A stretch of 64,000 bases of DNA from an uncultured Clostridiaceae bacterium (GCA_964371585.1 CAYJMD010000003.1:14631-78630); one strand, 5' to 3'. Shown: positions 6,732 to 57,746, numbered from the stretch's first letter. The notes: generated from the letters alone by a model not told the origin. Numbers and translations: made by a program.

Positions 6732-8222
6732 CTAAGGCATACATATGTATGCAGTATTATCTTCAAATACAATTTCAATATTATCTAAATCTTCATTATC
6801 AAAATATTTACTATATACTTCTTTACTATCCATATCAGGTTTTTCTTCATATTCTTTAAGTAATGAATATATAGGGTTAAAATATTCCAACACCTCATCA
6901 AGAACTGAATCATTATAACTCGATACATAATGAATTACAGTTTGCTTCGAAATATAATTATCATCAACTATAATTTTAATATATTCGATATTAATATTCA
7001 TATCCTGCTCATATATTTCTATTTCATTTTTTATATAATTACTTTCCTCTTTATTAAACACATTTACACTGTAATCTAAATAATATGTATAAAATAATAT
7101 TAAAATTTCTACAACTACAATTATACTACCAATTAAAATTAAACGTTTACTCTTCATATCAATAGTAATAATTAAATAAATGTATATCATAGCTGGAATC
7201 ATTCCCAGAGTAAATGCCATCCTATTTGATAAAAGCCCAATATTTATAACACCAAACGCCCCAGTAAATATAAGAGCAACTGCAGATATTACGCAAATAT
7301 TATATATGAACTTTTTAAGTATAATATCACTCTCTCCATTTTTAGTAATATTTAAATATACTAAAATAGTAGATACAATTATATATGGAGATACTGTAAT
7401 TAACAAGACACCTATTGTATCAATAAGTTTTATAATTAGTGGTACAATTTCACTTAACTCTATATATCTATCTAATATTTCAAAACCAAGTAGAGGCATA
7501 ATTAAACTTACTATAAACGAAACAATTAAAGCTAATATATAAAAAAGACATGTATTCATTACTAATTTAAATGTATACTTTAAACTATCTTTAATACTAA
7601 ACTCATTCTTATCATTAATCCTATTTAAACTATCAAAAAATATTACTAAAACTGGTAGCATAGCTATAAATGTTTGATATGTTAATACAGAAAATATCAT
7701 TAAAATAGCTACAATAATATTTCTACCCTTAACATTATTAACATATACAATTGCAGCAATAAGAACAAGTAACATTGCTGCCATCATATTTATATTTTCA
7801 AGATATACTAAATTATCTGCTACATATCTATTTAAAAATAATGCTATAACTCCTAAAACAAGTCCATACTTTTTAATAGTACTTTCTTTTTGTGAAAGTA
7901 AATTATTATGTAGTAATCTTTTTTTCACTTCATTATAAAACAAGTACATAGCAATAACAAACAGTACTCCTGTAAGTATAACAAATATTCTATACAAAGT
8001 CATATACTCTAAATTTAAAGGTACTATAATTTCATACATTAAACCTTGGATTATCCTGTTATTTGGATATGCAAGTTCATCTTTAAACTCTTCCAACCCA
8101 TGTTTTTCAATACTATATCCATCGGCAGAATATACCCCAAATAAATATGGGGTACATACTACTATTACAGCTATAATAAACATGATTAACACTTTAAAAT
8201 CCATCTTAGTATTTATCTTCAT
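6732..8222 (-). CDS. large polytopic membrane protein with C-terminal soluble domain, function unknown
   Basis: 496 aa with many hydrophobic segments over the first ~370 aa. Start overlaps the pgi stop by 17 nt (GAGG SD). Confidence 0.6.
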   Translation of the reverse strand: MKINTKMDFKVLIMFIIAVIVVCTPYLFGVYSADGYSIEKHGLEEFKDELAYPNNRIIQGLMYEIIVPLNLEYMTLYRIFVILTGVLFVIAMYLFYNEVKKRLLHNNLLSQKESTIKKYGLVLGVIALFLNRYVADNLVYLENINMMAAMLLVLIAAIVYVNNVKGRNIIVAILMIFSVLTYQTFIAMLPVLVIFFDSLNRINDKNEFSIKDSLKYTFKLVMNTCLFYILALIVSFIVSLIMPLLGFEILDRYIELSEIVPLIIKLIDTIGVLLITVSPYIIVSTILVYLNITKNGESDIILKKFIYNICVISAVALIFTGAFGVINIGLLSNRMAFTLGMIPAMIYIYLIITIDMKSKRLILIGSIIVVVEILILFYTYYLDYSVNVFNKEESNYIKNEIEIYEQDMNINIEYIKIIVDDNYISKQTVIHYVSSYNDSVLDEVLEYFNPIYSLLKEYEEKPDMDSKEVYSKYFDNEDLDNIEIVFEDNTAYICMP

Positions 8223-9519
8223 TAAGTAACCTCATCATGTTGTTTTTATATTCTTCTACTCCTGGTTGATTAAATGGATTAACTCCTAAAATATATGCAC
8301 TCATAGCGCAAGCTTTTTCAAAAAAGTATATAAGTGATCCTACATTATATGCATCTAGCTCTTCTATATTAATCACCATACATGGCACATTACCATCTAT
8401 ATGAGCTTTAAGTGTTCCTAAAAAAGCTTTATTATTAATATCAGCTATACTTGTATTAGATAAGTAGTTAAGTCCATCTTCATTTATTTCTGTAAATGGA
8501 AGATTTATTAAACTTCTATCTTTCTTAATATTAATAATAGTTTCAAAAAAGTTTCTTTTACCATCTTGCATTAATTGTCCCATTGAATGTAAATCAGTAG
8601 TTAAACTAACAGATGCTGGAAAAATACCTTTACCATCTTTTCCTTCACTTTCACCAAATAATTGTTTATACCATTCTAAAAACATAGTCATACTTGGTTC
8701 ATATGAAGCCATAACCTCAATATCTTTACCTTTATTATGTAAAAGATTTCTAAATATTGCATATCTATAACAGTCATTTGTTTCCATATTATTTTCATTG
8801 TATACATATTGCGCAAATATTGCTCCATCTAGTATATCTCGTATATCAATACCTGCAACAGCCATAGGTAAAAGTCCTACAGGTGTTAGCACTGAATATC
8901 TTCCACCAACATTTCTTGGAATATCAAAAGTTACATAGTCATTCTTGCTTGCTATTTGCTTTAAAATACCGTCTCTAGAATCTGTTGTAACATATATTCT
9001 TTTACTTGCTTTTTCTCTTCCATATTTTTTTTCTAATAATATTTTAAGAGTTCTAAATGCAATAGCTGGCTCTAAAGTTCTTCCAGATTTAGATATAACA
9101 TTTATAGCAAAATCTTTGTCTGTTAAATATTCAATTAAATCTCTTAAATATTTACCACTCATATTGTTTCCAGCAAATAATATCTGTGGAGTTTTTCTAT
9201 CTGCTCTACTTTGAAGATTAGAAAACGAATTACTAAGCATATCTATAACAGCTTTAGCTCCAAGATATGATCCACCTATTCCTATAACAACAAAAACATC
9301 ACACTCTCTACCAATAACTTCTGCTGATTGCATAATTCTTTGTACTTCTTCATCTTTTATTTCGTTTGGATAATTAAACCAGCCAAGCATTTCACTACCA
9401 AGTCCTGTTTTTTTAGTAATAGCTTCATGTGCTAAACTTGCTTTTTCTTTTACACTCTCAAATTCTTCTTCTGTTATAAATGAACTTAATCCCTCAAAAT
9501 CCATTGAAATCTTATTCAT
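8206..9519 (-). CDS. pgi: glucose-6-phosphate isomerase
   Basis: GIGGSYLGAKAV and FGESEGKDGKGIFP motifs; 437 aa. Confidence 0.95.
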   Translation of the reverse strand: MNKISMDFEGLSSFITEEEFESVKEKASLAHEAITKKTGLGSEMLGWFNYPNEIKDEEVQRIMQSAEVIGRECDVFVVIGIGGSYLGAKAVIDMLSNSFSNLQSRADRKTPQILFAGNNMSGKYLRDLIEYLTDKDFAINVISKSGRTLEPAIAFRTLKILLEKKYGREKASKRIYVTTDSRDGILKQIASKNDYVTFDIPRNVGGRYSVLTPVGLLPMAVAGIDIRDILDGAIFAQYVYNENNMETNDCYRYAIFRNLLHNKGKDIEVMASYEPSMTMFLEWYKQLFGESEGKDGKGIFPASVSLTTDLHSMGQLMQDGKRNFFETIINIKKDRSLINLPFTEINEDGLNYLSNTSIADINNKAFLGTLKAHIDGNVPCMVINIEELDAYNVGSLIYFFEKACAMSAYILGVNPFNQPGVEEYKNNMMRLLNEDKY

Positions 9520-9616
9520 TATTATCCCCCCTCATTTTTAAATAAATTATATCATATATCTTTTTCGTTTTCAACACATATTTTTACTAATACTATTATC
9601 TAAAAATGTACTATAT

Positions 9617-11002
9617 TTAATCTAAATATATAAGGTTAAGTAGATTGCTAAAACATCTCATTGCATATTCTACTTCCTGAAATGTATTACCTGTTGCTCC
9701 ACATTCAAGGAGTAATGAATATTTATTCATATCTTGATTATATGTAGAGTCCCTTATTATCATAGGTCTAAATAATCCTGGATATATCTCTTCAGCTAAA
9801 AGTTGTATTTTTGTTGCTAAAGCTATATTGTTATTTGCATAAGGATTCATATTACTACTTGTTCCAATTCCAACAACAAACATAAGCTGTGCTACCTCTA
9901 CATCTCCTATTTTTACTTTTGGAGCAAAATTTAAATCTGCACTTGCATCTCTATGTACATCTATTATTGTTGAAAAACCTGAATGTGACTTTATTGCATT
10001 TTCAATTGTAATCCTACTTCTAGAATATGAACTGTTATATGTTGCATAATCATGTGGTGTTGTATCATGAATAACTTTAATATTATTTTCAAGTAAGTTT
10101 TCTTCAAGCATTTTTCCTGTTTTAAGTACATTATAGTTTGCATCTTGGCTTCTATATGTACCACTATATCCAAATGAATACCCTTCACTATTTGTATAAG
10201 ACTCTGATGTATGAGTACTATATAGCAATATCTTATCATTACTTTTAGCAAAATTTATTGTAGAAGCAAGACAAGTTTTAAAATCAATTTCTGTATAATG
10301 AGATGAATAATTATTAATTACTATATCTCCTATATTAATTTGTACTCTATTTGAAAGTACACTACTTGTTATAGGGATATCATTTGAATTATTAAATACT
10401 GTAACTCCAGACTCTTTAAGAGCTAAGCTATCTATATACTGCATATCAATATCAATACTCGCATCAAATATGATATTTGACGTATTTAGATCAGTATTAT
10501 CTGCTACATCTAAACTAGTAATTTCTTTTTCATTGAATACAGGATAGATATTCTTTATCATTGCATAATCAAAATCAACTACTTGCTGCTGATGTATGTT
10601 TGTAGCTAAATTTAATATTTTAACATCTATATTAAAATAACTAAAAATATTTACACATACAATGAGTGAAATAGTAAATATTATATAACTTTTTATATTA
10701 ATACTAAATAATTGTTTAAATACATCTACATTAAAACTGTTACTTGTTTTAGGCATATATATTTCTTTAAATTTAGTTAATTTTTCTTTAATACTAATTT
10801 TAGATTTTTTTAGTATATCTTGTCTACTAATAAAGCAATCTTTTTTTATATTATCTTTTTGAAAAACATTAAGCTTCGATACATTATTATCTGTTTTACT
10901 TAGCTTTAGTTTTAAACGACTTTTCTTATTTAAGTTTTCTATATCTTTAATTACATTATTTCTTTGTTTACTTCTATCAAAAAAAACAGTTGTAACTTTC
11001 AT
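9617..11002 (-). CDS. spoIIP: stage II sporulation protein P
   Basis: LLYSTHTSESY, IDVHRDA and LLECGATGNT motifs after an N-terminal TM segment. Confidence 0.85.
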   Translation of the reverse strand: MKVTTVFFDRSKQRNNVIKDIENLNKKSRLKLKLSKTDNNVSKLNVFQKDNIKKDCFISRQDILKKSKISIKEKLTKFKEIYMPKTSNSFNVDVFKQLFSINIKSYIIFTISLIVCVNIFSYFNIDVKILNLATNIHQQQVVDFDYAMIKNIYPVFNEKEITSLDVADNTDLNTSNIIFDASIDIDMQYIDSLALKESGVTVFNNSNDIPITSSVLSNRVQINIGDIVINNYSSHYTEIDFKTCLASTINFAKSNDKILLYSTHTSESYTNSEGYSFGYSGTYRSQDANYNVLKTGKMLEENLLENNIKVIHDTTPHDYATYNSSYSRSRITIENAIKSHSGFSTIIDVHRDASADLNFAPKVKIGDVEVAQLMFVVGIGTSSNMNPYANNNIALATKIQLLAEEIYPGLFRPMIIRDSTYNQDMNKYSLLLECGATGNTFQEVEYAMRCFSNLLNLIYLD

Positions 11003-48863: not shown

Positions 48864-50195
48864 TTAATTAGTTTTTATATTATTTTTAGTTTTATTTTTA
48901 CTACTTTCGGAAGAAATTACACTTCCATATTTAACTAAATTAACATCATATTTTTTATTTAAATCATCTATTATACTTGATACTTTTTCTTGTTTAATTC
49001 TAACTTTATTTTTTATATCTTGTGTATTTATATTATGATTTTTAATATTATTATCTCTATTATTGTTAGCATATTTATTATCCATTTTTAACAAATCATT
49101 TTGATTCATATTAGGTAGATCCTCAAACATATTAACTTGAACCTCATCATTTTCATATACTAAATTATTAGCTGAAACAGTAAGCATTCTTACATTTCTT
49201 GATTTAATATAATTCTCTTTTAGTAATTCTTCTACTTTAATAATCATATCTGTATATAGATTAGTTTTAAGTATCTTTTTTTGCCTTGTAAAACTTATAA
49301 AATTATTGTCTTTTATTGTTATAGATATTACTGTACATTTAGCTTTTTTCTCTCTAAGCTCAGTTGCTACAATATTAGTTAAATCTCTTATTCTTTTAAG
49401 CTGATATTCTAAATCATTACTATCTTCTTTAAATGTTCTTCCATGACTTACACTTTTAACTAAATACTCATCTGTATATAACTTAACATTAGAACTATCC
49501 AGTCCATGTACCATATTATATAGACTATCACCATTTTTACCAAGTAGTTTTAGTAATTTGAATTTATCCATGTGAGCAATATCACCTATTTTTGTTATTC
49601 CTTTTTTATTTAAAAATATAGTTGTAGCTTTACCCACATACAGTAAATTATTTATGTCAAGAGGATATAATATTCTTTTATAATTTTTAAAATCAATCAC
49701 AGTTATTGCATCTGGCTTTTTCATATCACTACCCATTTTAGCAAAAGATTTAGTAAAACTAATTCCAATAGATATAGTGAGTCCTAATGTGTTTTTAACA
49801 TCTTCTTTAATTAAATTTGCAATATTAACACTACTTCCATATAACGCTAAACTTTCACTTACATCTAAAAAAGATTCATCAATACTCATAGGCTCAACTC
49901 TATTTGTATATTTAAGGTATACTTTATTTACTAATTCAGAATACTTTTTATACTCTGGATAATCACTACTAACAAGCACTAAATCTGGACATTTCTTTTT
50001 AGCACTATATATTGTTTCAGCTGTCACAACTCCATATTTTTTAGCTAAATTATTTTTAGCAAGTATAATTCCACTTCTTGTTTTAGGATCACCACAAACG
50101 GCCATCGGAACATTTTTTAAATTCTCATCCTTAAGAGATGCTACAGAAGCAAAAAAATTATTCAAATCACAATGAAGTATATTACTCTCTTTCAA
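48864..50195 (-). CDS. dinB: DNA polymerase IV (Y-family) with N-rich C-terminal tail
   Basis: Start moved to TTG 50195 (GGTGA SD 5 nt upstream), because the track 5' extension is a consensus promoter. ILHCDLNNFFASV and SIDESFLDV motifs. Confidence 0.9.
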   Translation of the reverse strand: MKESNILHCDLNNFFASVASLKDENLKNVPMAVCGDPKTRSGIILAKNNLAKKYGVVTAETIYSAKKKCPDLVLVSSDYPEYKKYSELVNKVYLKYTNRVEPMSIDESFLDVSESLALYGSSVNIANLIKEDVKNTLGLTISIGISFTKSFAKMGSDMKKPDAITVIDFKNYKRILYPLDINNLLYVGKATTIFLNKKGITKIGDIAHMDKFKLLKLLGKNGDSLYNMVHGLDSSNVKLYTDEYLVKSVSHGRTFKEDSNDLEYQLKRIRDLTNIVATELREKKAKCTVISITIKDNNFISFTRQKKILKTNLYTDMIIKVEELLKENYIKSRNVRMLTVSANNLVYENDEVQVNMFEDLPNMNQNDLLKMDNKYANNNRDNNIKNHNINTQDIKNKVRIKQEKVSSIIDDLNKKYDVNLVKYGSVISSESSKNKTKNNIKTN

Positions 50196-50211
50196 AACTA
50201 TCACCAAACTC

Positions 50212-50240
50212 ATTATACCAAACAATTGTTTTATAGTCAA
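50212..50240 (-). promoter_or_regulatory. consensus-like sigma-A promoter for dinB
   Basis: Minus strand reads TTGACT-17 nt-TATAAT. Confidence 0.7.
50220..50231. promoter_or_regulatory. 12-bp perfect palindrome AAACAATTGTTT in the dinB promoter spacer (candidate LexA-type operator)
   Basis: Read directly. The AAC-N4-GTT core matches the core of the Firmicute SOS box CGAAC-N4-GTTCG. Confidence 0.35.
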
Positions 50241-50334
50241 CTTTTATACTATTAATATACATTTTATCCATATATTTAAATTAGCTTATTAATTAGTTTT
50301 TAATTATATTATTTATGTTTATCATCATTTAAAG

Positions 50335-50363
50335 TTGAACATGTATTACTTAGATGGTATAAT
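50335..50363 (+). promoter_or_regulatory. sigma-A type promoter
   Basis: TTGAAC-17 nt-TATAAT with a TGg extended -10. Confidence 0.65.
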
Positions 50364-50420
50364 ATTGTTATAAATATTGTATAATATTTAAAATTAATTA
50401 ATTTTAAAGGAGACATTATC

Positions 50421-50732
50421 ATGAAAAAATTAGACATTTACGAACCAAACGACTTAACTATCAAAAACGTGATTACAACTATCAAAACTGAATTTGAAAA
50501 AGACTTTGAATTGCAAGGAATACGGTTTATAAAAAACATTACTGATAAACAGTGCTGGATTTATTGTATTTCAAGAGATGGACTACTTAGTAAAACTATA
50601 GAAAACTATATTATCGGACTTAATGGACAAATTAGCAAAAAGTATTCTTCAGTAACCTTACTTGGAACATATGATATATTCACTATTCCTATTAATCAAA
50701 ACAGACATTTAGAAGATTTTTTTAATAATTAA
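50421..50732 (+). CDS. hypothetical protein
   Basis: 103 aa, AAGGAGA SD, with its own promoter and terminator. Confidence 0.55.
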   Translation: MKKLDIYEPNDLTIKNVITTIKTEFEKDFELQGIRFIKNITDKQCWIYCISRDGLLSKTIENYIIGLNGQISKKYSSVTLLGTYDIFTIPINQNRHLEDFFNN

Positions 50733-50737
50733 ATATC

Positions 50738-50769
50738 AAAAAGCAGTATGAACTATTCATACTGCTTTT
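50738..50769. terminator. bidirectional hairpin terminator
   Basis: AAAAGCAGTATGA-N6-TCATACTGCTTTT, a perfect 13-bp stem. Confidence 0.8.
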
Positions 50770-50832
50770 ATTTTAATTAATAATTTACTTTACTTTTGTA
50801 TTCAATCAATGTACTTCTTTTATCACTAGTAA

Positions 50833-51402
50833 TTATGTTCTTATTTTCATAGCATATTCTACTTGATTTCCGTATGAATCATTGTTTGAATATACAGGTT
50901 CTAGTTCATATAATATATATATATTTCTATCATCTGGTAGGTTTGATATATCTAGTTTAAACTGATTATCAGAAATATTTATTGTTTCACTTAGCTTAGC
51001 ATTTAACTCCTCATCTATTAATGTTATATTAACATCTTTAAATTTAAAAGTTCTACTATTTTTTACTGCTTCGTCCTGTGTAATTAAATCTATATTACTA
51101 TCACAAACTACTAAATCTATTAATAATGTATTATCTATTTCAGTAAAAGGAATATCTTTAAGTTTTTCTTTTATTTGCATATAAATATCTTCTTCATTAA
51201 AATATGATATTGCTGCTACATTATTATCTGAATTATAATAATTCCAATCATAATCAATTAAATGAGCAGATATATTATCATTTATTTTTAGTATTTCCTT
51301 AATATCTACATTTCTCTGAGTATAAATAGCATTAATAGCTATTACGGAAATAATAACTCCAATTACTCCACCTATTAAAATTAAACTTATTCTACTTTTC
51401 AA
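50833..51402 (-). CDS. membrane-anchored hypothetical protein
   Basis: TTG 51402 lies 5 nt after an AGGTGA SD (the track GTG start is inside the SD). One N-terminal TM helix. Confidence 0.5.
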   Translation of the reverse strand: MKSRISLILIGGVIGVIISVIAINAIYTQRNVDIKEILKINDNISAHLIDYDWNYYNSDNNVAAISYFNEEDIYMQIKEKLKDIPFTEIDNTLLIDLVVCDSNIDLITQDEAVKNSRTFKFKDVNITLIDEELNAKLSETINISDNQFKLDISNLPDDRNIYILYELEPVYSNNDSYGNQVEYAMKIRT

Positions 51403-51440
51403 TATTATCACCTACCTTATAACACAAATATATACTAATA

Positions 51441-52919
51441 TTATTTTATATCAAGCATTCTTTTTGCTATTTTAAGATCGGATTCAAAGTATGTAAATAC
51501 ACCTTTAACTTTTTGGTAATCTTCCTCACCTTTAGCTAGTAATACAATAACATCACCTTTTTTTGAATTTTTTATTGCTTTTTCTACAGCTTCTGTTCTA
51601 TCTTCAACTATTTCATATTTAACTTTTTCAGGAATAAACTTAACAATATCTAAACAAATACTTTCAACAGTTTCAAATTGCGGATCTTCTGCTGTTAAAT
51701 AAACATAATCAGAGTTAGCACCTACAATTTCACCAAAATCTTGTCTTCTTTTATATGCTTTGTTTCCTGGACCACCGCCTAAAGATACTATTCTTCTATT
51801 TGGGTAATCCACTTTTATTGATTCATATAGTTTTGCAAATGAAAGTCTATTATGTGCATAATCTACAATCACTGTTATGCCATTTTTTTCAAATACATTC
51901 ATTCTTCCTCTTACTTCTGTAACAAGAAGTCCCTTTTTTATATCTTCATCTAAAATATTAAGTACTTTTGCCATAGTTATTGCTGCAACTGCATTTTCTA
52001 TATTAAATCTTCCTTGCATATTAATTTTAAATTCTTCCTTATAATTTATTTTATCATTAATTACTGTAAATGAAAAGCCTGTTTCTTCTTTTTTAATATT
52101 TTCATATCTATAATCTGCTTCTTTACCTTTACCGTAAGTAACATATGGTACATTTTCAGATATACAAGTTTCTTTTATTTTATTAAATTCATCCATATCT
52201 GAATTTAATACCATATCATCAACATTATTTATTAATTGTAATTTACAATTCAAATAATCTTCATAATCTGGATGCTCAGCATCACTTATATGATCTTCAG
52301 AAATATTTAAAAACATTCCATGTTTAAAATGTACTCCTAAAGCTCTATCTGTTTTATATGCTTGTGAAGTGACTTCCATAGTTAAGTATTTTAAATTATT
52401 TTGTTTAACTTCATAAAAGTACTTATGAAGCTCTAATGCTTCTGGCGTTGTTAAGTGAGCTTCTTCTTTTCTTTTACCTGTTATTATTTCAACTGTAGAT
52501 ATAACTGCACTATCTTTATTTATATGTCTATCTATTATATTTTTTAAAAAATATGTTACTGTAGTTTTACCTTTAGTACCTGTTATACCAATAGTTTCTA
52601 TATCATTATATGCATCTTTATAGAAAAGTTTAGCTACATATGCCATTGCTTTTCTTACATCTTTAACAATTATATAATTTACGTCATCTCTATACTTTTC
52701 TTCAGCAATATAGCAACTAGCACCGTTTTCTAAAGCTTTGTCTAAATATTCAGATTTATAATTTTTACCTTTACAAAAAAATAATGTATTACTATTTATA
52801 TCTCTAGAATCATATGATAGATACTTAATCATATCATCATTGTTAATGTTACACTCTAAAATCAAACACTTATCTTCAAGTAATTTTTCTATTTTTTCTA
52901 AACTAACTAAAAGTTCCAT
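51441..52919 (-). CDS. murE: UDP-N-acetylmuramoyl-L-alanyl-D-glutamate--diamino acid ligase (MurE)
   Basis: GITGTKGKTT P-loop. EDPQ (51689-51678) sits where meso-diaminopimelate (mDAP)-type enzymes have DNPR. Confidence 0.85.
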   Translation of the reverse strand: MELLVSLEKIEKLLEDKCLILECNINNDDMIKYLSYDSRDINSNTLFFCKGKNYKSEYLDKALENGASCYIAEEKYRDDVNYIIVKDVRKAMAYVAKLFYKDAYNDIETIGITGTKGKTTVTYFLKNIIDRHINKDSAVISTVEIITGKRKEEAHLTTPEALELHKYFYEVKQNNLKYLTMEVTSQAYKTDRALGVHFKHGMFLNISEDHISDAEHPDYEDYLNCKLQLINNVDDMVLNSDMDEFNKIKETCISENVPYVTYGKGKEADYRYENIKKEETGFSFTVINDKINYKEEFKINMQGRFNIENAVAAITMAKVLNILDEDIKKGLLVTEVRGRMNVFEKNGITVIVDYAHNRLSFAKLYESIKVDYPNRRIVSLGGGPGNKAYKRRQDFGEIVGANSDYVYLTAEDPQFETVESICLDIVKFIPEKVKYEIVEDRTEAVEKAIKNSKKGDVIVLLAKGEEDYQKVKGVFTYFESDLKIAKRMLDIK

Positions 52920-52967
52920 ACTATATCTCCTTTCAAATAATTAATTACATAGTCTAACCTAAATTAA

Positions 52968-53951
52968 CTAATTATTGTTTTTTTCTAATCTATTTTTTAA
53001 ATTATCTTTATTTAATCCTACTGCTAAGAAGTTGTATAATATTTCCCACGCAATAAAACTTGTTATACCACTTGCGTCTTGAATTGGATTTAGTTCAACT
53101 TGATCAAAAGCTACAACATTTATATCTTTCAGTCCTCTTAAAACATTAAGTACTTTCATTATTTTAAGACCATTGTATTTTGGTGTACCTACACCTTCAC
53201 TATATGCTGCTTCTAATGAGTCCATATCGAAAGTAACATATACTCCATCACAATCTTTAAATTTATCTTTTAATATAGTTAAAACTTCTTCTTCTAACAT
53301 GTTATTAAATTCATTTGAAGTGATTGTTGTTATATTATTATCTACTGCAAAATCATTCCACACTCTGTTTACTAATCCTCTAAGTCCTATAACAGCCATA
53401 TTATTTCCTTCTAAATGACCTTCTTTAATAAGATTGGAAAATTGATTACAATGAGATACTCTTGGCATAAATGGAATATCTGGTTCTGTATCATTATGTG
53501 CATCAAATTGTAATAACCCTAACTTTTTAAAGTTCCCGCCTTCTTTAACTCCTATAAATGATCCATAAGTTATTGAATGATCTCCACCTATTATAACTGG
53601 AAATGTTGATTTTACCATTTTAGAGGATACTCTTATTAATTCATTTAATGTTTCTTCTTGATTACCTTTATATACGTTTAAGTCTCCTAAATCGCATATA
53701 TTTAAATCATTTGTTTTTACTATTTTTCTATTATCATAGTCATAGCATTCCATTCCATCTATTCTTTTCCACATAGAATGTTCTCTAACTGCTCTTGGTG
53801 CATACTGCATTCCAAGTCTATATGTAGCTCCCATTTCACTTGGAACTCCAAGTACTGATACTTCGTAATTATTTACTTCACTTAGGCTTACATGTTCACT
53901 ACCTACAAAAGTAGCTATGCCGAAGTGTTTCATTTCTTCTGCTTGTTTCAA
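52968..53951 (-). CDS. agmatinase/ureohydrolase-family protein
   Basis: TTG start after an AAGGAGA SD. GGDHSITYG, DAHNDT and DMDSLE manganese-ligand motifs. Confidence 0.8.
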   Translation of the reverse strand: MKQAEEMKHFGIATFVGSEHVSLSEVNNYEVSVLGVPSEMGATYRLGMQYAPRAVREHSMWKRIDGMECYDYDNRKIVKTNDLNICDLGDLNVYKGNQEETLNELIRVSSKMVKSTFPVIIGGDHSITYGSFIGVKEGGNFKKLGLLQFDAHNDTEPDIPFMPRVSHCNQFSNLIKEGHLEGNNMAVIGLRGLVNRVWNDFAVDNNITTITSNEFNNMLEEEVLTILKDKFKDCDGVYVTFDMDSLEAAYSEGVGTPKYNGLKIMKVLNVLRGLKDINVVAFDQVELNPIQDASGITSFIAWEILYNFLAVGLNKDNLKNRLEKNNN

Positions 53952-53989
53952 ATTTTATTCTCCTTCTTATATTTTTAATATATAAAAAC

Positions 53990-54018
53990 ATTATATCATT
54001 TGTAGTTATTTTTTTCAA
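53990..54018 (-). promoter_or_regulatory. sigma-A type promoter for the ureohydrolase-murE operon
   Basis: Minus strand reads TTGAAA-17 nt-TATAAT with a TGa extended -10. Confidence 0.7.
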
Positions 54019-54078
54019 GCTATACTTGTAATATACTAAAAACTTAACAGTCATTATATATTTTTAAAATATATAAAA

Positions 54079-54109
54079 ACAGATATATAACATTATGTTA
54101 TATATCTGT
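54079..54109 (-). terminator. hairpin terminator after paralog P4
   Basis: 31-nt perfect palindrome ACAGATATATAACATTATGTTATATATCTGT. Confidence 0.7.
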
Positions 54110-54119
54110 CTAATATTAT

Positions 54120-55016
54120 TCATTTAATAATAGGGATTTCAAGTTCTATTTCAAGATTACAATTTTCATCAATCTCAACTGAAATAGTGCCAAAACCTTG
54201 AAATTGTAAAAATTCAATTATGATATTCACAAATTCATCATAAGATACAGTATTTAATTTATTAGAATCAACAGTAATACTAATATCTAAATTGGTATAC
54301 TCAAATCCTTGGATTATATGACTATATATCTTAGTGAATTGAGCAATAAATTCTTTTTTTATTGTAGCTAGTAATTTATTATTTAGCCAAAGTTGTAAAC
54401 CAATCTCATTTTGCAAATCAGCTCTTATTATGATATTTTTAGCTACATCATCTGGAGTTATAATATTAATAGGTATTCCAAGTTCATTTATAAAGTTTTT
54501 TAATTTAGTTATATCACTATTTAATATACTTCTAAATCTATTCCAAATTGCATAATCAATTTGAGTATATAAACTAATAATATCAATTATTAATGAAAAT
54601 TCTCCTATTTTATAATCACTTTCATCGATATGAGTTAAATTACTAAAATAATTTAGATATTCTTCTAGATAATTATTAAAAACTAAATCCAAACTATATA
54701 AATCCTTTTTATTTATTGTAATATTTAAAAGTTCTAACTTTTCAGCAATATTATCTATCAGTATAGACAATTCATTATCTAAATCATAACTTATTTCATT
54801 ATCATCTTCCTCTAATATTTCTTCAGTATCTTTATTGTCATTATCTAGATTTTTTTTAATTTTTTCATAATGAATAAATATTTTTTCAGAATTTAAGATG
54901 GTATGATTAATCATATTATCAATATTTATCACAGATAAAATTACATAGTCTATTTCCAATTTAATCATATTATTTGGAATGAATATTCTGTTTGAAGCAT
55001 ATATAGCTTTATCCAT
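54120..55016 (-). CDS. acidic hypothetical protein, paralog P4 of a four-gene array
   Basis: 298 aa. ATG lies 2 nt after the P3 stop, and the GAGGAGGAG codons of P3 serve as its SD. C-terminus YDEFVNIIIEFLQFQGFGTISVEIDE. Confidence 0.65.
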   Translation of the reverse strand: MDKAIYASNRIFIPNNMIKLEIDYVILSVINIDNMINHTILNSEKIFIHYEKIKKNLDNDNKDTEEILEEDDNEISYDLDNELSILIDNIAEKLELLNITINKKDLYSLDLVFNNYLEEYLNYFSNLTHIDESDYKIGEFSLIIDIISLYTQIDYAIWNRFRSILNSDITKLKNFINELGIPINIITPDDVAKNIIIRADLQNEIGLQLWLNNKLLATIKKEFIAQFTKIYSHIIQGFEYTNLDISITVDSNKLNTVSYDEFVNIIIEFLQFQGFGTISVEIDENCNLEIELEIPIIK

Positions 55017-55018
55017 AA

Positions 55019-55861
55019 TTACTCCTCCTCATTATAAGTGACATCAATTGTTTCTATTGTTATAATAAAATCGCTTTGTTCTTCGCTAAAACTTACTTTT
55101 TCAAATCCATGAAACTTAAAAAAATTTTTAATGTAAATAAGAAAATCTTCATCTAACATTTTAAACATATTCATATAATATGAATTAACCGATATCACAT
55201 ATGTTCTTGTAGTAAAACTTGCATTATCAAACTCTGCAATTTCAGAATACTTTTCAATTGATTTAATAATCAATATATTAATAAAACTTGGAAAAACTTC
55301 ATCTAGTAATTCCCATACATGTGAAGGAAATACAAGATCAATATTTTGAACTCTACAATTTATCATCATTTCATTAAAACTATTTTCAAGCATATCAAAT
55401 CCATACTTATCAGTAACATCTGAAAAATGAATATTACCTAACAAAAATTTACTAATCTCTTCTTTATAATCATCGATTAAAGTAATATGCAAGATTATAT
55501 ACTTAACATATATCATTCTAAAAAATTCCGATTGATTTATTAAATCATTACTAATATTTAATAATGACAACACTACATTTAACGCTTTATCCATTTCATA
55601 TATATTATTAATACTACTTCTATTTAAGTTTAGTTCTTCCTCTTTTTCATGTACAAGAGTAATAATAGAATTAAATATATATTCAAATTCGCACTTATCT
55701 GTAAATTCGCCTCCTTTAATTTCTAATTCTTCATTTTCTTCAACTATTTTATCTATAATTTCCCGAGTCATAAGTAGCTGAATAAGCATCGTTTCTAAAT
55801 AAAAATATATCATTTCTGATACGTAAAAAAGCGGTGGATAAATTTTAGCATTGTTACTCAT
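55019..55861 (-). CDS. acidic hypothetical protein, paralog P3
   Basis: Start moved to ATG 55861 (AGGAGG SD); the track extension to 55945 covers a promoter. C-terminus DEDFLIYIKNFFKFHGFEKVSFSEE. Confidence 0.65.
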   Translation of the reverse strand: MSNNAKIYPPLFYVSEMIYFYLETMLIQLLMTREIIDKIVEENEELEIKGGEFTDKCEFEYIFNSIITLVHEKEEELNLNRSSINNIYEMDKALNVVLSLLNISNDLINQSEFFRMIYVKYIILHITLIDDYKEEISKFLLGNIHFSDVTDKYGFDMLENSFNEMMINCRVQNIDLVFPSHVWELLDEVFPSFINILIIKSIEKYSEIAEFDNASFTTRTYVISVNSYYMNMFKMLDEDFLIYIKNFFKFHGFEKVSFSEEQSDFIITIETIDVTYNEEE

Positions 55862-55916
55862 AATTCCAAACCTCCTAAAATTAATTAATTTTATGTTATT
55901 ATTTATTGTTAATTGA

Positions 55917-55945
55917 ATTATATCATAGCAGTAGTATCTTATCAA
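55917..55945 (-). promoter_or_regulatory. sigma-A type promoter for P3-P4
   Basis: Minus strand reads TTGATA-17 nt-TATAAT with a TGa extended -10. Confidence 0.6.
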
Positions 55946-55963
55946 GTTATCTTAGTAACAAAA

Positions 55964-56001
55964 AACTTAAATATATAACAATTATGTTACATATTTAAGT
56001 T
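55964..56001 (-). terminator. long hairpin after paralog P2
   Basis: AACTTAAATATaTAACA-atta-TGTTAcATATTTAAGTT. Confidence 0.65.
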
Positions 56002-56006
56002 TAATT

Positions 56007-57002
56007 TTATAGTTCAAATATTATAAATACATCTAGTTTTATTTCATCTTCTTCTATACTAATACCAAAATTATTAAATCCTTCAAATTCAAGTAAAATT
56101 TTTAGATAATTAATAAACTCAGATTCACTTATTTTAATCTTGGATATATCTTCTTTTTCAAAAAAACATTTAACTTCAAAATTAATATCATCATTATCTA
56201 TATCACATTCATTTTCAATGTATAAATAAATAAGTTCTAATATCTCAATTAAAATATTTTCATAAAATAAAATTTCCATTTCGATTAATACAAGTTGATT
56301 CATATTTTCTTCTCTATCTAAGGTGATTTTAAAAAAATCATTAATGTTATAATCCAGTGTTACTCCAAAAAGATAGGTTAAATCATTTACTTTCATTCTA
56401 TTTAAAGAATTTTTTTTATAATATTTTTGAAATTCTGTAATAAACTTTTCACTGATATTGCTTGTAAGCTTTTCATAATAATTAGAAATACTATCTAATG
56501 CTTGAATAATTCTTGCTAAATCTTCTTCTTCCTCATCTGATATATCATAAAATTCATCACCAGTTGTATCATCTGATATCAAATCTAAAGATTCAATATA
56601 GTTAATAATACTAATAATAATTTTATGTAATTGCTTATCAAAAGTACTAATACATTTAATACTATCATAATCTATCGAAGAATAATAGTTAGGGGATAGT
56701 TTTTCTAAACTTTCATCAGACATTTCTAATAGTAATATAAGCTTATCAACTAAATCTGAAAAAGTTTTTTTTGTTAATGGATACTCCATATTATGTTCAT
56801 CTTGCTCTGAATTACTTCCTTCTGATATATTTTCATCCTCATCATCTTCAATAGAGCCTAATATATCAACCATTTTTTCATAACTATTATCTAACAATCT
56901 AATTGTTTTAACATAATTTGAAATTAATATCTTAACAAGTAACATCACAGGAATATCTTTTACATACCGAATATAGTTTGAAACAAGTATATTATTTCCC
57001 AT
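56007..57002 (-). CDS. acidic hypothetical protein, paralog P2
   Basis: 331 aa, GGAGG SD, 15 nt after the P1 stop. C-terminus SEFINYLKILLEFEGFNNFGISIEEDE. Confidence 0.65.
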   Translation of the reverse strand: MGNNILVSNYIRYVKDIPVMLLVKILISNYVKTIRLLDNSYEKMVDILGSIEDDEDENISEGSNSEQDEHNMEYPLTKKTFSDLVDKLILLLEMSDESLEKLSPNYYSSIDYDSIKCISTFDKQLHKIIISIINYIESLDLISDDTTGDEFYDISDEEEEDLARIIQALDSISNYYEKLTSNISEKFITEFQKYYKKNSLNRMKVNDLTYLFGVTLDYNINDFFKITLDREENMNQLVLIEMEILFYENILIEILELIYLYIENECDIDNDDINFEVKCFFEKEDISKIKISESEFINYLKILLEFEGFNNFGISIEEDEIKLDVFIIFEL

Positions 57003-57017
57003 AGTAATACCTCCATA

Positions 57018-57641
57018 TCAAATAATTTTTATTGTTATAAATATTTCACAATCTTTAGTATAAATAGCTTCTATTCTTAGCAAATTATATAATAAATATT
57101 CTTTAATGCACATTACAATATCATTAATATTGCTGCCTGTTTCATTTATAAGCCTGGTAACAGTATTTTCCGAAATCTTAAGTTTTACAGTTTTATTGTC
57201 TAGAGAAATATTCTCATCTTCAAAACATTTTTTAACTATTGCTTTAAAGAATTTACAAGATAAATATTCATATACAGCATATGGTATTTGCACTCTAGAA
57301 AAATTATCTCTAAACTTTTCTGTCACTTCTTGAATTTTTATTTTTTCTGGAGCTTTTATTGCTGCATATATACCGATCTCGTTAAATATAATATTAAGAA
57401 GCTTGTCTGTTTCTTTAACATTTAGTTTACTTGGATGAATTATAAGTTCTACAATTTGCTTTTTTAAATACTCAATATGTTCATCACAAGCATATTCATC
57501 ACTAGTTACAGGATTTTTATCACTATCTAAAACAATAATATTCTCATCATTTTTAATACTAGCTAACATGCTTAAAAACAGTTGTATTACAACACCTTTA
57601 GGTACTCCCTCGTTTATTTTGTTTGTCACTGAAAATTTCAT
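57018..57641 (-). CDS. hypothetical protein, divergent shorter paralog P1
   Basis: ATG 57641 lies 9 nt after an AAGGAG SD (the track ATG abuts the SD). C-terminus NDIVMCIKEYLLYNLLRIEAIYTKD. Confidence 0.55.
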   Translation of the reverse strand: MKFSVTNKINEGVPKGVVIQLFLSMLASIKNDENIIVLDSDKNPVTSDEYACDEHIEYLKKQIVELIIHPSKLNVKETDKLLNIIFNEIGIYAAIKAPEKIKIQEVTEKFRDNFSRVQIPYAVYEYLSCKFFKAIVKKCFEDENISLDNKTVKLKISENTVTRLINETGSNINDIVMCIKEYLLYNLLRIEAIYTKDCEIFITIKII

Positions 57642-57694
57642 TAGTAACATCTCCTTTTTTAATTATAAATTAGTTTTATATAAACTTCTACAGT

Positions 57695-57723
57695 ATTATA
57701 CCATACACGAATATATTTTACAA
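57695..57723 (-). promoter_or_regulatory. sigma-A type promoter for P1-P2
   Basis: Minus strand reads TTGTAA-17 nt-TATAAT with a TGg extended -10. Confidence 0.55.
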
Positions 57724-57746
57724 GACAAACAACAAAGATTACATAA

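Follow-up and report, generated by a model that had tools for sequence, protein, structure and literature searches.

A candidate ORFan accessory islet of four genes in a putative hypervariable hotspot near murE in an uncultured Clostridiaceae bacterium

Both defence islands and accessory islands are known to occupy hotspots in which the cargo varies while the core genes on either side are conserved. Gut bacteria have orphan immunity arrays, in which cytoplasmic paralogs stand in tandem, diverge rapidly and lack a cognate toxin (10.1101/471110; PMC12247911). The sequences of acidic DNA mimics that act as inhibitors are too divergent to recognise (PMC3902945), and one of these inhibitors, Ocr, has 116 amino acids (aa) per monomer (PMC3439906). 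We analysed a window of 64,000 nucleotides (nt) from an uncultured Clostridiaceae bacterium (GCA_964371585.1 CAYJMD010000003.1:14631-78630), in which four consecutive minus-strand open reading frames (ORFs), P1 to P4, lie between a DUF2383 gene and an arginase-family gene. Judged from the sequence, the block is most simply described as a genome-specific ORFan accessory islet in a lineage-wide hypervariable hotspot.

The site resembles the known variable-cargo hotspots in that conserved, collinear flanks enclose ~0.5-5 kb of unrelated cargo, with one zeta-toxin-like gene in a relative. It differs from them in that no integrase, tRNA or flanking repeats were found at its boundary, and in that the cargo of the relatives consists mostly of secreted/surface or prepilin-like proteins and Beta_propel (PF09826) proteins, not of recognised defence genes. 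Compared with the orphan immunity arrays, such as the acquired interbacterial defence clusters of gut Bacteroidales, the islet is similar in its tandem diverging paralogs, in the absence of a toxin nearby and in its strain-specific presence. However, its proteins are larger than typical immunity proteins and match no immunity family in Pfam, NCBIfam or PADLOC, its host belongs to the Gram-positive-type Clostridia with no type VI or type VII secretion system or toxin context visible, and no mobility genes were found near it; a protective role would here be drawn by analogy only. The original prediction had taken the flanks for housekeeping genes and had seen no partner toxin or enzyme. A Pfam scan of the neighbourhood agreed with both statements, returning core genes only, with neither a cognate toxin nor a toxin remnant adjoining the block. 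The two-gene layout of P1-P2 and P3-P4 would fit type II toxin-antitoxin pairs, but the members are 207-331 aa long and no member of either operon matched a toxin or antitoxin family in Pfam, NCBIfam or PADLOC.

The four ORFs were present at the positions first proposed for them (Table 1), and their products match the public NCBI annotation exactly, each as a singleton entry in the NCBI-derived protein collection. The window is very AT-rich, with a guanine-plus-cytosine (GC) content of 22-29%, and a stop codon is expected about every 10 codons on the minus strand; at this composition, a frame of 207 codons stays open by chance with a probability of ~1e-10. Scored with a codon table drawn from the window itself, the coding frames of P1-P4 reached log2-odds of 0.24-0.31 per codon, compared with 0.40 +/- 0.10 for other window genes, and the two remaining frames scored below -1. 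For P1, the coding frame scored 0.255 and the other two frames approximately -1.3 and -1.8. Based on the frame-specific codon log-odds, the improbably long open frames, and the Shine-Dalgarno sites, promoters and terminators described below, P1-P4 are genuine, host-adapted coding genes.

All four products had been called acidic, which held for P2 (net charge -43, isoelectric point (pI) 4.15), P3 (-29, pI 4.38) and P4 (-27, pI 4.35) but not for P1 (-2, pI 5.8). P2, P3 and P4 ranked as the top three in acidity among 58 window ORFs. Isoleucine, leucine, asparagine, glutamate and aspartate dominate the composition of the orphan proteins, and glycine, alanine, proline and arginine together account for 5-7% of P2-P4, among the lowest values in the window (median 13.8%). 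The maximum Kyte-Doolittle hydropathy over 19 residues, KD(19), did not exceed 1.66 in the proteins, in keeping with the absence of transmembrane helices reported earlier and, together with the low pI of P2-P4, with a cytoplasmic, acidic character.

The block of ~3.7 kb is predicted to form two bicistronic operons, P1-P2 and P3-P4, each with its own promoter and terminator. In operon 1, an AAGGAG Shine-Dalgarno site favours the ATG at 57641 as the start of P1, and P2, which begins 15 nt after P1, has a GGAGG of its own upstream. In operon 2, AGGAGG precedes the ATG of P3 at 55861. A longer ORF of P3 with a TTG start would contain the -10 element of the operon 2 promoter, and the 280-aa form is the one annotated in the public record. 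P4 starts 2 nt past the stop of P3, and GAGGAGGAG upstream, which encodes the terminal EEE of P3, is positioned as the P4 Shine-Dalgarno site. The promoter-like site of each operon carries a TG upstream of its -10 element. Apart from the host consensus, found also in the promoter of the arginase-family gene, the two had nothing in common. Strong intrinsic terminators follow P2 and P4, and their cores showed 83% column identity in alignment; no other DNA-level repeat or duplication was found between operon 1 and operon 2. The gaps within the pairs, the extended -10 promoter of each pair, the double use of the EEE codons and the related hairpins had all been read from the sequence in the original prediction, and each was verified.

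Table 1. Features of the islet and of the hotspot. Coordinates are those of the window or, for hotspots of relatives (L numbers), those of the related locus.
Feature	Coordinates	Strand	Remarks
P1	57018..57641	-	207 aa; near-neutral orphan, first gene of operon 1
P2	56007..57002	-	331 aa; very acidic orphan, second gene of operon 1
P3	55019..55861	-	280 aa; acidic orphan, first gene of operon 2
P4	54120..55016	-	298 aa; acidic orphan, second gene of operon 2
Promoter-like site, operon 1	57695..57723	-	TTGTAA-17-TATAAT, TG-extended
Promoter-like site, operon 2	55917..55945	-	TTGATA-17-TATAAT, TG-extended
Predicted intrinsic terminator after P2	55957..56002	-	perfect 18-bp AT-rich stem and T run; free energy (dG) -18.1 kcal/mol, z -5.8
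Predicted intrinsic terminator after P4	54067..54111	-	dG -18.2 kcal/mol, z -4.8; core related to that of the P2 terminator
P2 C-terminal module	56010..56219	-	last 70 aa; F-E-G-F at 56076-56087
P3 C-terminal module	55022..55246	-	last 75 aa; F-H-G-F at 55103-55114
P4 C-terminal module	54123..54317	-	last 65 aa; F-Q-G-F at 54192-54203; predicted helix-strand-helix-strand-strand
Promoter of arginase-family gene, downstream hotspot edge	53990..54018	-	conserved
Hotspot, window	53952-57746		holds P1-P4
Hotspot, L024	76-560		~480 bp, one tiny ORF
Hotspot, L004	8057-9027		~1 kb, 208-aa orphan
Hotspot, L001	6811-9043		618-aa Beta_propel protein
Hotspot, L002	3973-9043		~5 kb, RCC1-repeat protein, small protein and Beta_propel
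Hotspot, L005	5795-9042		Beta_propel and Zeta_toxin-family protein
Hotspot, L029	6999-10001		two tandem 404-aa prepilin-like paralogs

The proteins had been proposed as an array of four paralogs with a common C-terminal F-x-G-F motif, together with a shuffled-sequence alignment as a check. We compared the last 50 residues by Smith-Waterman alignment with 2000 composition-preserving shuffles. The results showed similarity above chance between P2 and P4 (z 8.1, matched by 0/2000 shuffles) and between P2 and P3 (z 4.05, p 0.0015), marginal similarity between P3 and P4 (z 2.7, p 0.02), and no significant similarity of P1 to P2, P3 or P4 (p 0.12-0.75). Among 3420 six-frame ORFs from this window and 23 related loci, which served as a null of real sequences, P2 and P4 were reciprocal best hits (score 72; best unrelated ORF 55-57), the P2-P3 comparisons ranked 3-4, those of P3-P4 9-11, and those of P1 9-446. 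The F-x-G-F motif occurs exactly once in each of P2, P3 and P4, ending 22, 27 and 23 aa from the C-terminus, and was not found in P1. In 429 control proteins (144,653 residues) it occurred 13 times and at the equivalent position in 1/429 only, and in shuffles it fell there at ~1e-3 per protein. P1 was likewise not matched to P2-P4 by phmmer or, with E > 80, by hidden Markov model (HMM) searches, and hhalign of the P2/P3/P4 profile with P1 gave a probability of 0.09%. By these comparisons, P2, P3 and P4 are distant paralogs with a common C-terminal module and an overall identity of ~27%, while P1 is a different, near-neutral protein and not a detectable paralog; the proposed array and its motif thus stand for three members and fall for the fourth. 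A hydrophobic N-terminal segment, also proposed as common to P2-P4, had no statistical support.

Helix-hairpin tails of AT-rich proteins could also come to resemble one another by chance or convergence, in which case the block would hold four unrelated orphans. Leave-one-out HMMs built from two members, with composition correction, and phmmer did not retrieve the omitted third member. Because HMMER does not link the members, the three-member family rests on the positional motif and the Smith-Waterman statistics. Moreover, a 339-aa acidic protein of the related locus L009, whose tail looked alike by eye, was ruled out as transglutaminase-like. On the other side stand the P2-P4 score and its reciprocal best rank among real ORFs, the recurrence of the motif at a like C-terminal distance in three adjacent proteins, and the related terminators, which are consistent with cassette duplication. 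We consider chance resemblance extremely unlikely. With one proposed paralog and one look-alike in a relative having failed, these comparisons show that by-eye similarity of helix-hairpin tails needs statistics.

The main rival explanation is that the genes are weakly constrained or functionless and lineage-specific, expressed or silent relics drifting under AT pressure that persist only because the hotspot tolerates insertions. Their uniqueness to one genome among billions of proteins, their extreme composition, the poor single-sequence structure model and the nearly empty hotspot of L024 would all fit such relics. Against this, the four ORFs of 207-331 codons are intact at a composition where stops should be frequent, the Shine-Dalgarno sites, promoters and strong terminators are intact as well, and the motif and module are kept across paralogs that have otherwise diverged widely. 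This conservation implies that the C-terminus has been under purifying selection in the past. We regard the relic explanation as unlikely; DNA mimics, envelope scaffolds and chance similarity are each less likely still.

Searches with MurE and with the arginase-family protein brought together 32 related loci of uncultured Clostridia, those of gut and rumen among them, in which identity to the window reached at most 68% for MurE and 79% for the arginase-family protein. That the lineage is poorly sampled is seen from the housekeeping proteins flanking the islet, which are themselves singletons at 90% identity. A survey of relatives for conserved neighbours, as first suggested, found the order cysS-femAB-(DUF6512)-flavin reductase-DUF2383-gap-arginase-murE kept in L001, L002, L004, L005 and L029. 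The hotspot is the gap in this order, from the DUF2383 gene to the arginase-family gene, and its length and cargo differ among the relatives (Table 1). At its downstream edge, TGATATAAT and the -35 element of the arginase promoter were conserved in L001, L002, L004 and L005, and the sequence just upstream was unrelated. Where the upstream flank was incomplete, in L025 and L028, prepilin-like proteins of 903 aa and 751 aa, respectively, lay upstream of the arginase-family gene; in L009, where synteny was detectable on the arginase-murE side only, VanW, transglutaminase and LRR_5 proteins lay upstream. The block had also been called system-like. This did not hold, as it is unique to one genome and the same site holds unrelated cargo in the other loci examined, and we found no evidence that it forms a coherent system.

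None of the hotspot ORFs of the relatives resembled P1-P4 by tblastn, phmmer, HMM or Smith-Waterman comparison. The closest candidate was the 208-aa orphan ORF of L004 (8227-8853), which follows directly after DUF2383 and agrees with P1 in position, orientation and length. In a pairwise BLASTP comparison it aligned colinearly with P1 in the C-terminal half (30% over 63 aa, E 0.003), and its Smith-Waterman match to P1 residues 109-205 (z 3.1, p 0.011) was the top of 140 comparisons, as would be expected by chance. The ORF may be a very diverged orthologue of P1, with a match that is non-significant after multiple testing.

Two further observations concern the cargo and flanks of the relatives. 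In L005, the Zeta_toxin-family protein (PF06414, E 9e-25) is encoded at 7992-8855, directly upstream of the arginase-family gene, with no obvious epsilon-type antitoxin gene adjoining. In L029, the tandem paralogs are encoded at 7331-8545 and 8602-9816 and have prepilin-like N-termini (KGISLIVLVITIIV...), and the DUF2383 gene is duplicated (5756-6181 and 6574-6999), its copies being 36% and 52% identical to that of the window.

Family and homologue searches gave no match above threshold for any of the four proteins in Pfam, NCBIfam or PHROGs, and the searches as a whole strongly confirm the original prediction, which had seen no recognisable family. The best Pfam-A match had E 0.008 and 16 bits against a cut-off of 25.6, NCBIfam gave nothing below 0.1, and the best PHROGs match (E 0.0016) was to a family of unknown function. 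When the C-terminal modules alone were compared with Pfam, no family was common to at least two members. P4, P2 and P1 were each searched against 5.8 billion proteins by word index, and each search returned its own query only. An exhaustive hmmsearch of 1.84 billion cluster representatives with the P4/P2/P3 profile returned only the three query proteins. The P2/P3/P4 profile found no relative in 2.9 M viral contigs, tblastn of P1 and P2 found no match in 50,697 phage records, and PDB sequence searches found none.

With PADLOC, P1 matched AbiLii (E 0.006) and P2 matched PDC-S57 (E 4e-4) and SspC (E 5.5e-4). These matches were weak and sub-threshold, at 15-18 bits only, the two unrelated families matched by P2 overlapped in residues, and no partner components of the systems were present beside the single matches. 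For calibration, PADLOC was also run on 10 shuffled and 4 reversed sequences, none of which gave a match, and on 6 unrelated real proteins. An unrelated window protein, however, matched BrxF more strongly than P1 and P2 matched their families (E 4e-6, 25 bits, residues 44-117). This is a 192-aa acidic protein with an N-terminal membrane anchor and without a Pfam family, encoded just downstream of murE (50833-51411, minus strand). With its membrane anchor and its size, it is unlikely to be a BrxF ATPase, so the match is presumed spurious, and PADLOC E-values in this range are therefore untrustworthy for this proteome. The matches of P1 to AbiLii and of P2 to PDC-S57 and SspC were accordingly regarded as unreliable.

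The single-sequence AF2 model of P4 had a predicted local distance difference test (pLDDT) score of 36 and was unusable. When the last 109 aa of P4 were modelled with the three-paralog alignment, mean pLDDT rose to 61 (predicted template-modelling (TM) score, pTM, 0.53), and the module was predicted as helix-strand-helix-strand-strand at pLDDT 65-74. Foldseek searches with this model found nothing significant in the PDB (best E 0.24, TM <= 0.4) or in BFVD, where the best match had E 0.014 and the proteins matched were uncharacterised phage proteins at high root-mean-square deviation. Among the weak matches in the PDB was one to the MinE topological-specificity domain (TMt 0.58, E 0.87), likewise non-significant. 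Together with the cell-wall genes murE and FemAB in the flanks and the prepilin-like proteins that relatives hold at the same site, this match would fit cytoplasmic structural or scaffold proteins tied to the cell envelope or to the pilin-like cargo, similar to MinE- or SepF-type adaptors with an N-terminal hydrophobic helix, a linker and a small C-terminal alpha/beta dimerisation domain. But every structural match was non-significant, no Pfam match to SepF, MinE, PilN, PilO or similar proteins was found, the N-terminal similarity was non-significant, and the cargo is unrelated from genome to genome, so that position says little on function. We judge a scaffold role very unlikely.

The proteins could instead be remnants or morons of phages or mobile elements that act as anti-restriction or anti-defence DNA mimics, whose acidic helical bodies would imitate DNA and block nucleases of the host or of competitors. 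P2-P4 are similar to T7 Ocr, ArdA, DMP19 and SAUGI in being very acidic (pI ~4), soluble and orphan in sequence, and plausibly oligomeric likewise (PMC3439906, PMC3384305, PMC3902945). Their pI of ~4.2-4.4, the most acidic of the window, favours this explanation, as do the notorious difficulty of detecting known mimics by sequence (PMC3902945; PMC3439906), the phage origin of the best, non-significant Foldseek matches and a GC content of the islet slightly below that of its flanks. However, the proteins exceed Ocr two- to threefold in size, no relative was found among the phage records, viral contigs or PHROGs searched, and their codon usage and promoters are of host type. The islet also lies outside a mobile-element leading-region or early-phage context, the neighbourhood scanned held no integrase, transposase or other mobile-element gene, and no Pfam match (ArdA would be detectable), PDB sequence match or significant Foldseek match to ArdA or Ocr was found. 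We judge DNA mimicry of this origin quite unlikely.

The explanation that we prefer combines an ORFan islet, diverged paralogs P2-P4 and a role of these proteins as acidic binders or inhibitors. Its descriptive part, namely the islet, the operons, the genuine genes and the paralogy, is well supported. As a whole we hold it tentatively, at somewhat less than an even prospect, and the binder or inhibitor role, which is drawn by analogy, is a guess that is rather unlikely to be right. The body of each of P2-P4 is strongly acidic, mostly helical and fast-evolving, and the C-terminal module of ~60-100 aa is conserved. The module might serve as a folding or docking element, and the acidic body as a specificity or variable functional surface. 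Because of the tight spacing within each gene pair, the two products of each operon are likely to be co-produced and possibly paired. The proteins would act in the cytoplasm as binders or inhibitors, of immunity or decoy type, whose targets are basic proteins that bind nucleic acids, for example incoming toxins or nucleases. An unsampled mobile source with the same base composition is the probable origin of the islet.

Several results weigh against this combined explanation. No homologue of P1-P4 was found outside this genome in the databases searched, the structure models reached only low to moderate confidence (pLDDT 36 and 61), and the leave-one-out searches did not retrieve the third paralog. 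The low content of glycine, alanine, proline and arginine is also expected of weakly constrained sequence drifting under AT pressure. P2-P4, at 280-331 aa, exceed typical immunity or DNA-mimic proteins, and no toxin, secretion system, restriction enzyme or mobility gene was found in the 64-kb window. A bolder version, in which P2-P4 found a new family that joins an F-x-G-F alpha/beta docking module to hyper-acidic helical bodies and forms obligate pairs from two duplicated operons, acting as a new class of large nucleic-acid-mimicking inhibitors for immunity, anti-restriction or anti-defence, seems very improbable.

Since AT-rich lineages that are poorly sampled commonly have clusters of orphan genes in their variable hotspots, the interest of the finding is modest. 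What it mainly shows is how many real genes of uncultured gut bacteria with low GC escape all current detection by homology or fold. Should the proteins prove to be functional inhibitors, the few known acidic decoy or immunity proteins would gain a sequence-orphan family, and a hypervariable hotspot for accessory genes would be marked beside murE in a gut Clostridia lineage about which little is known.

Some observations concern the wider neighbourhood. No tRNA or Rfam family was found in the whole 64 kb, nor at a relaxed threshold over 50000-64000, a range that includes ~390 nt of non-coding sequence (61933-62327) upstream of cysS, where one might look for a T-box leader in a Firmicute. In the window and in most related loci, murE is directly preceded by the arginase/ureohydrolase-family gene, and in Oscillospiraceae-type loci (L012-L019) it is directly followed by a FemAB-family gene; the parts of the window concerned are 51441-53951 and 59506-60546. 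As a speculation, the conserved arginase-murE(-femAB) linkage might have to do with supplying a diamino acid, possibly ornithine, for the peptidoglycan stem peptide.

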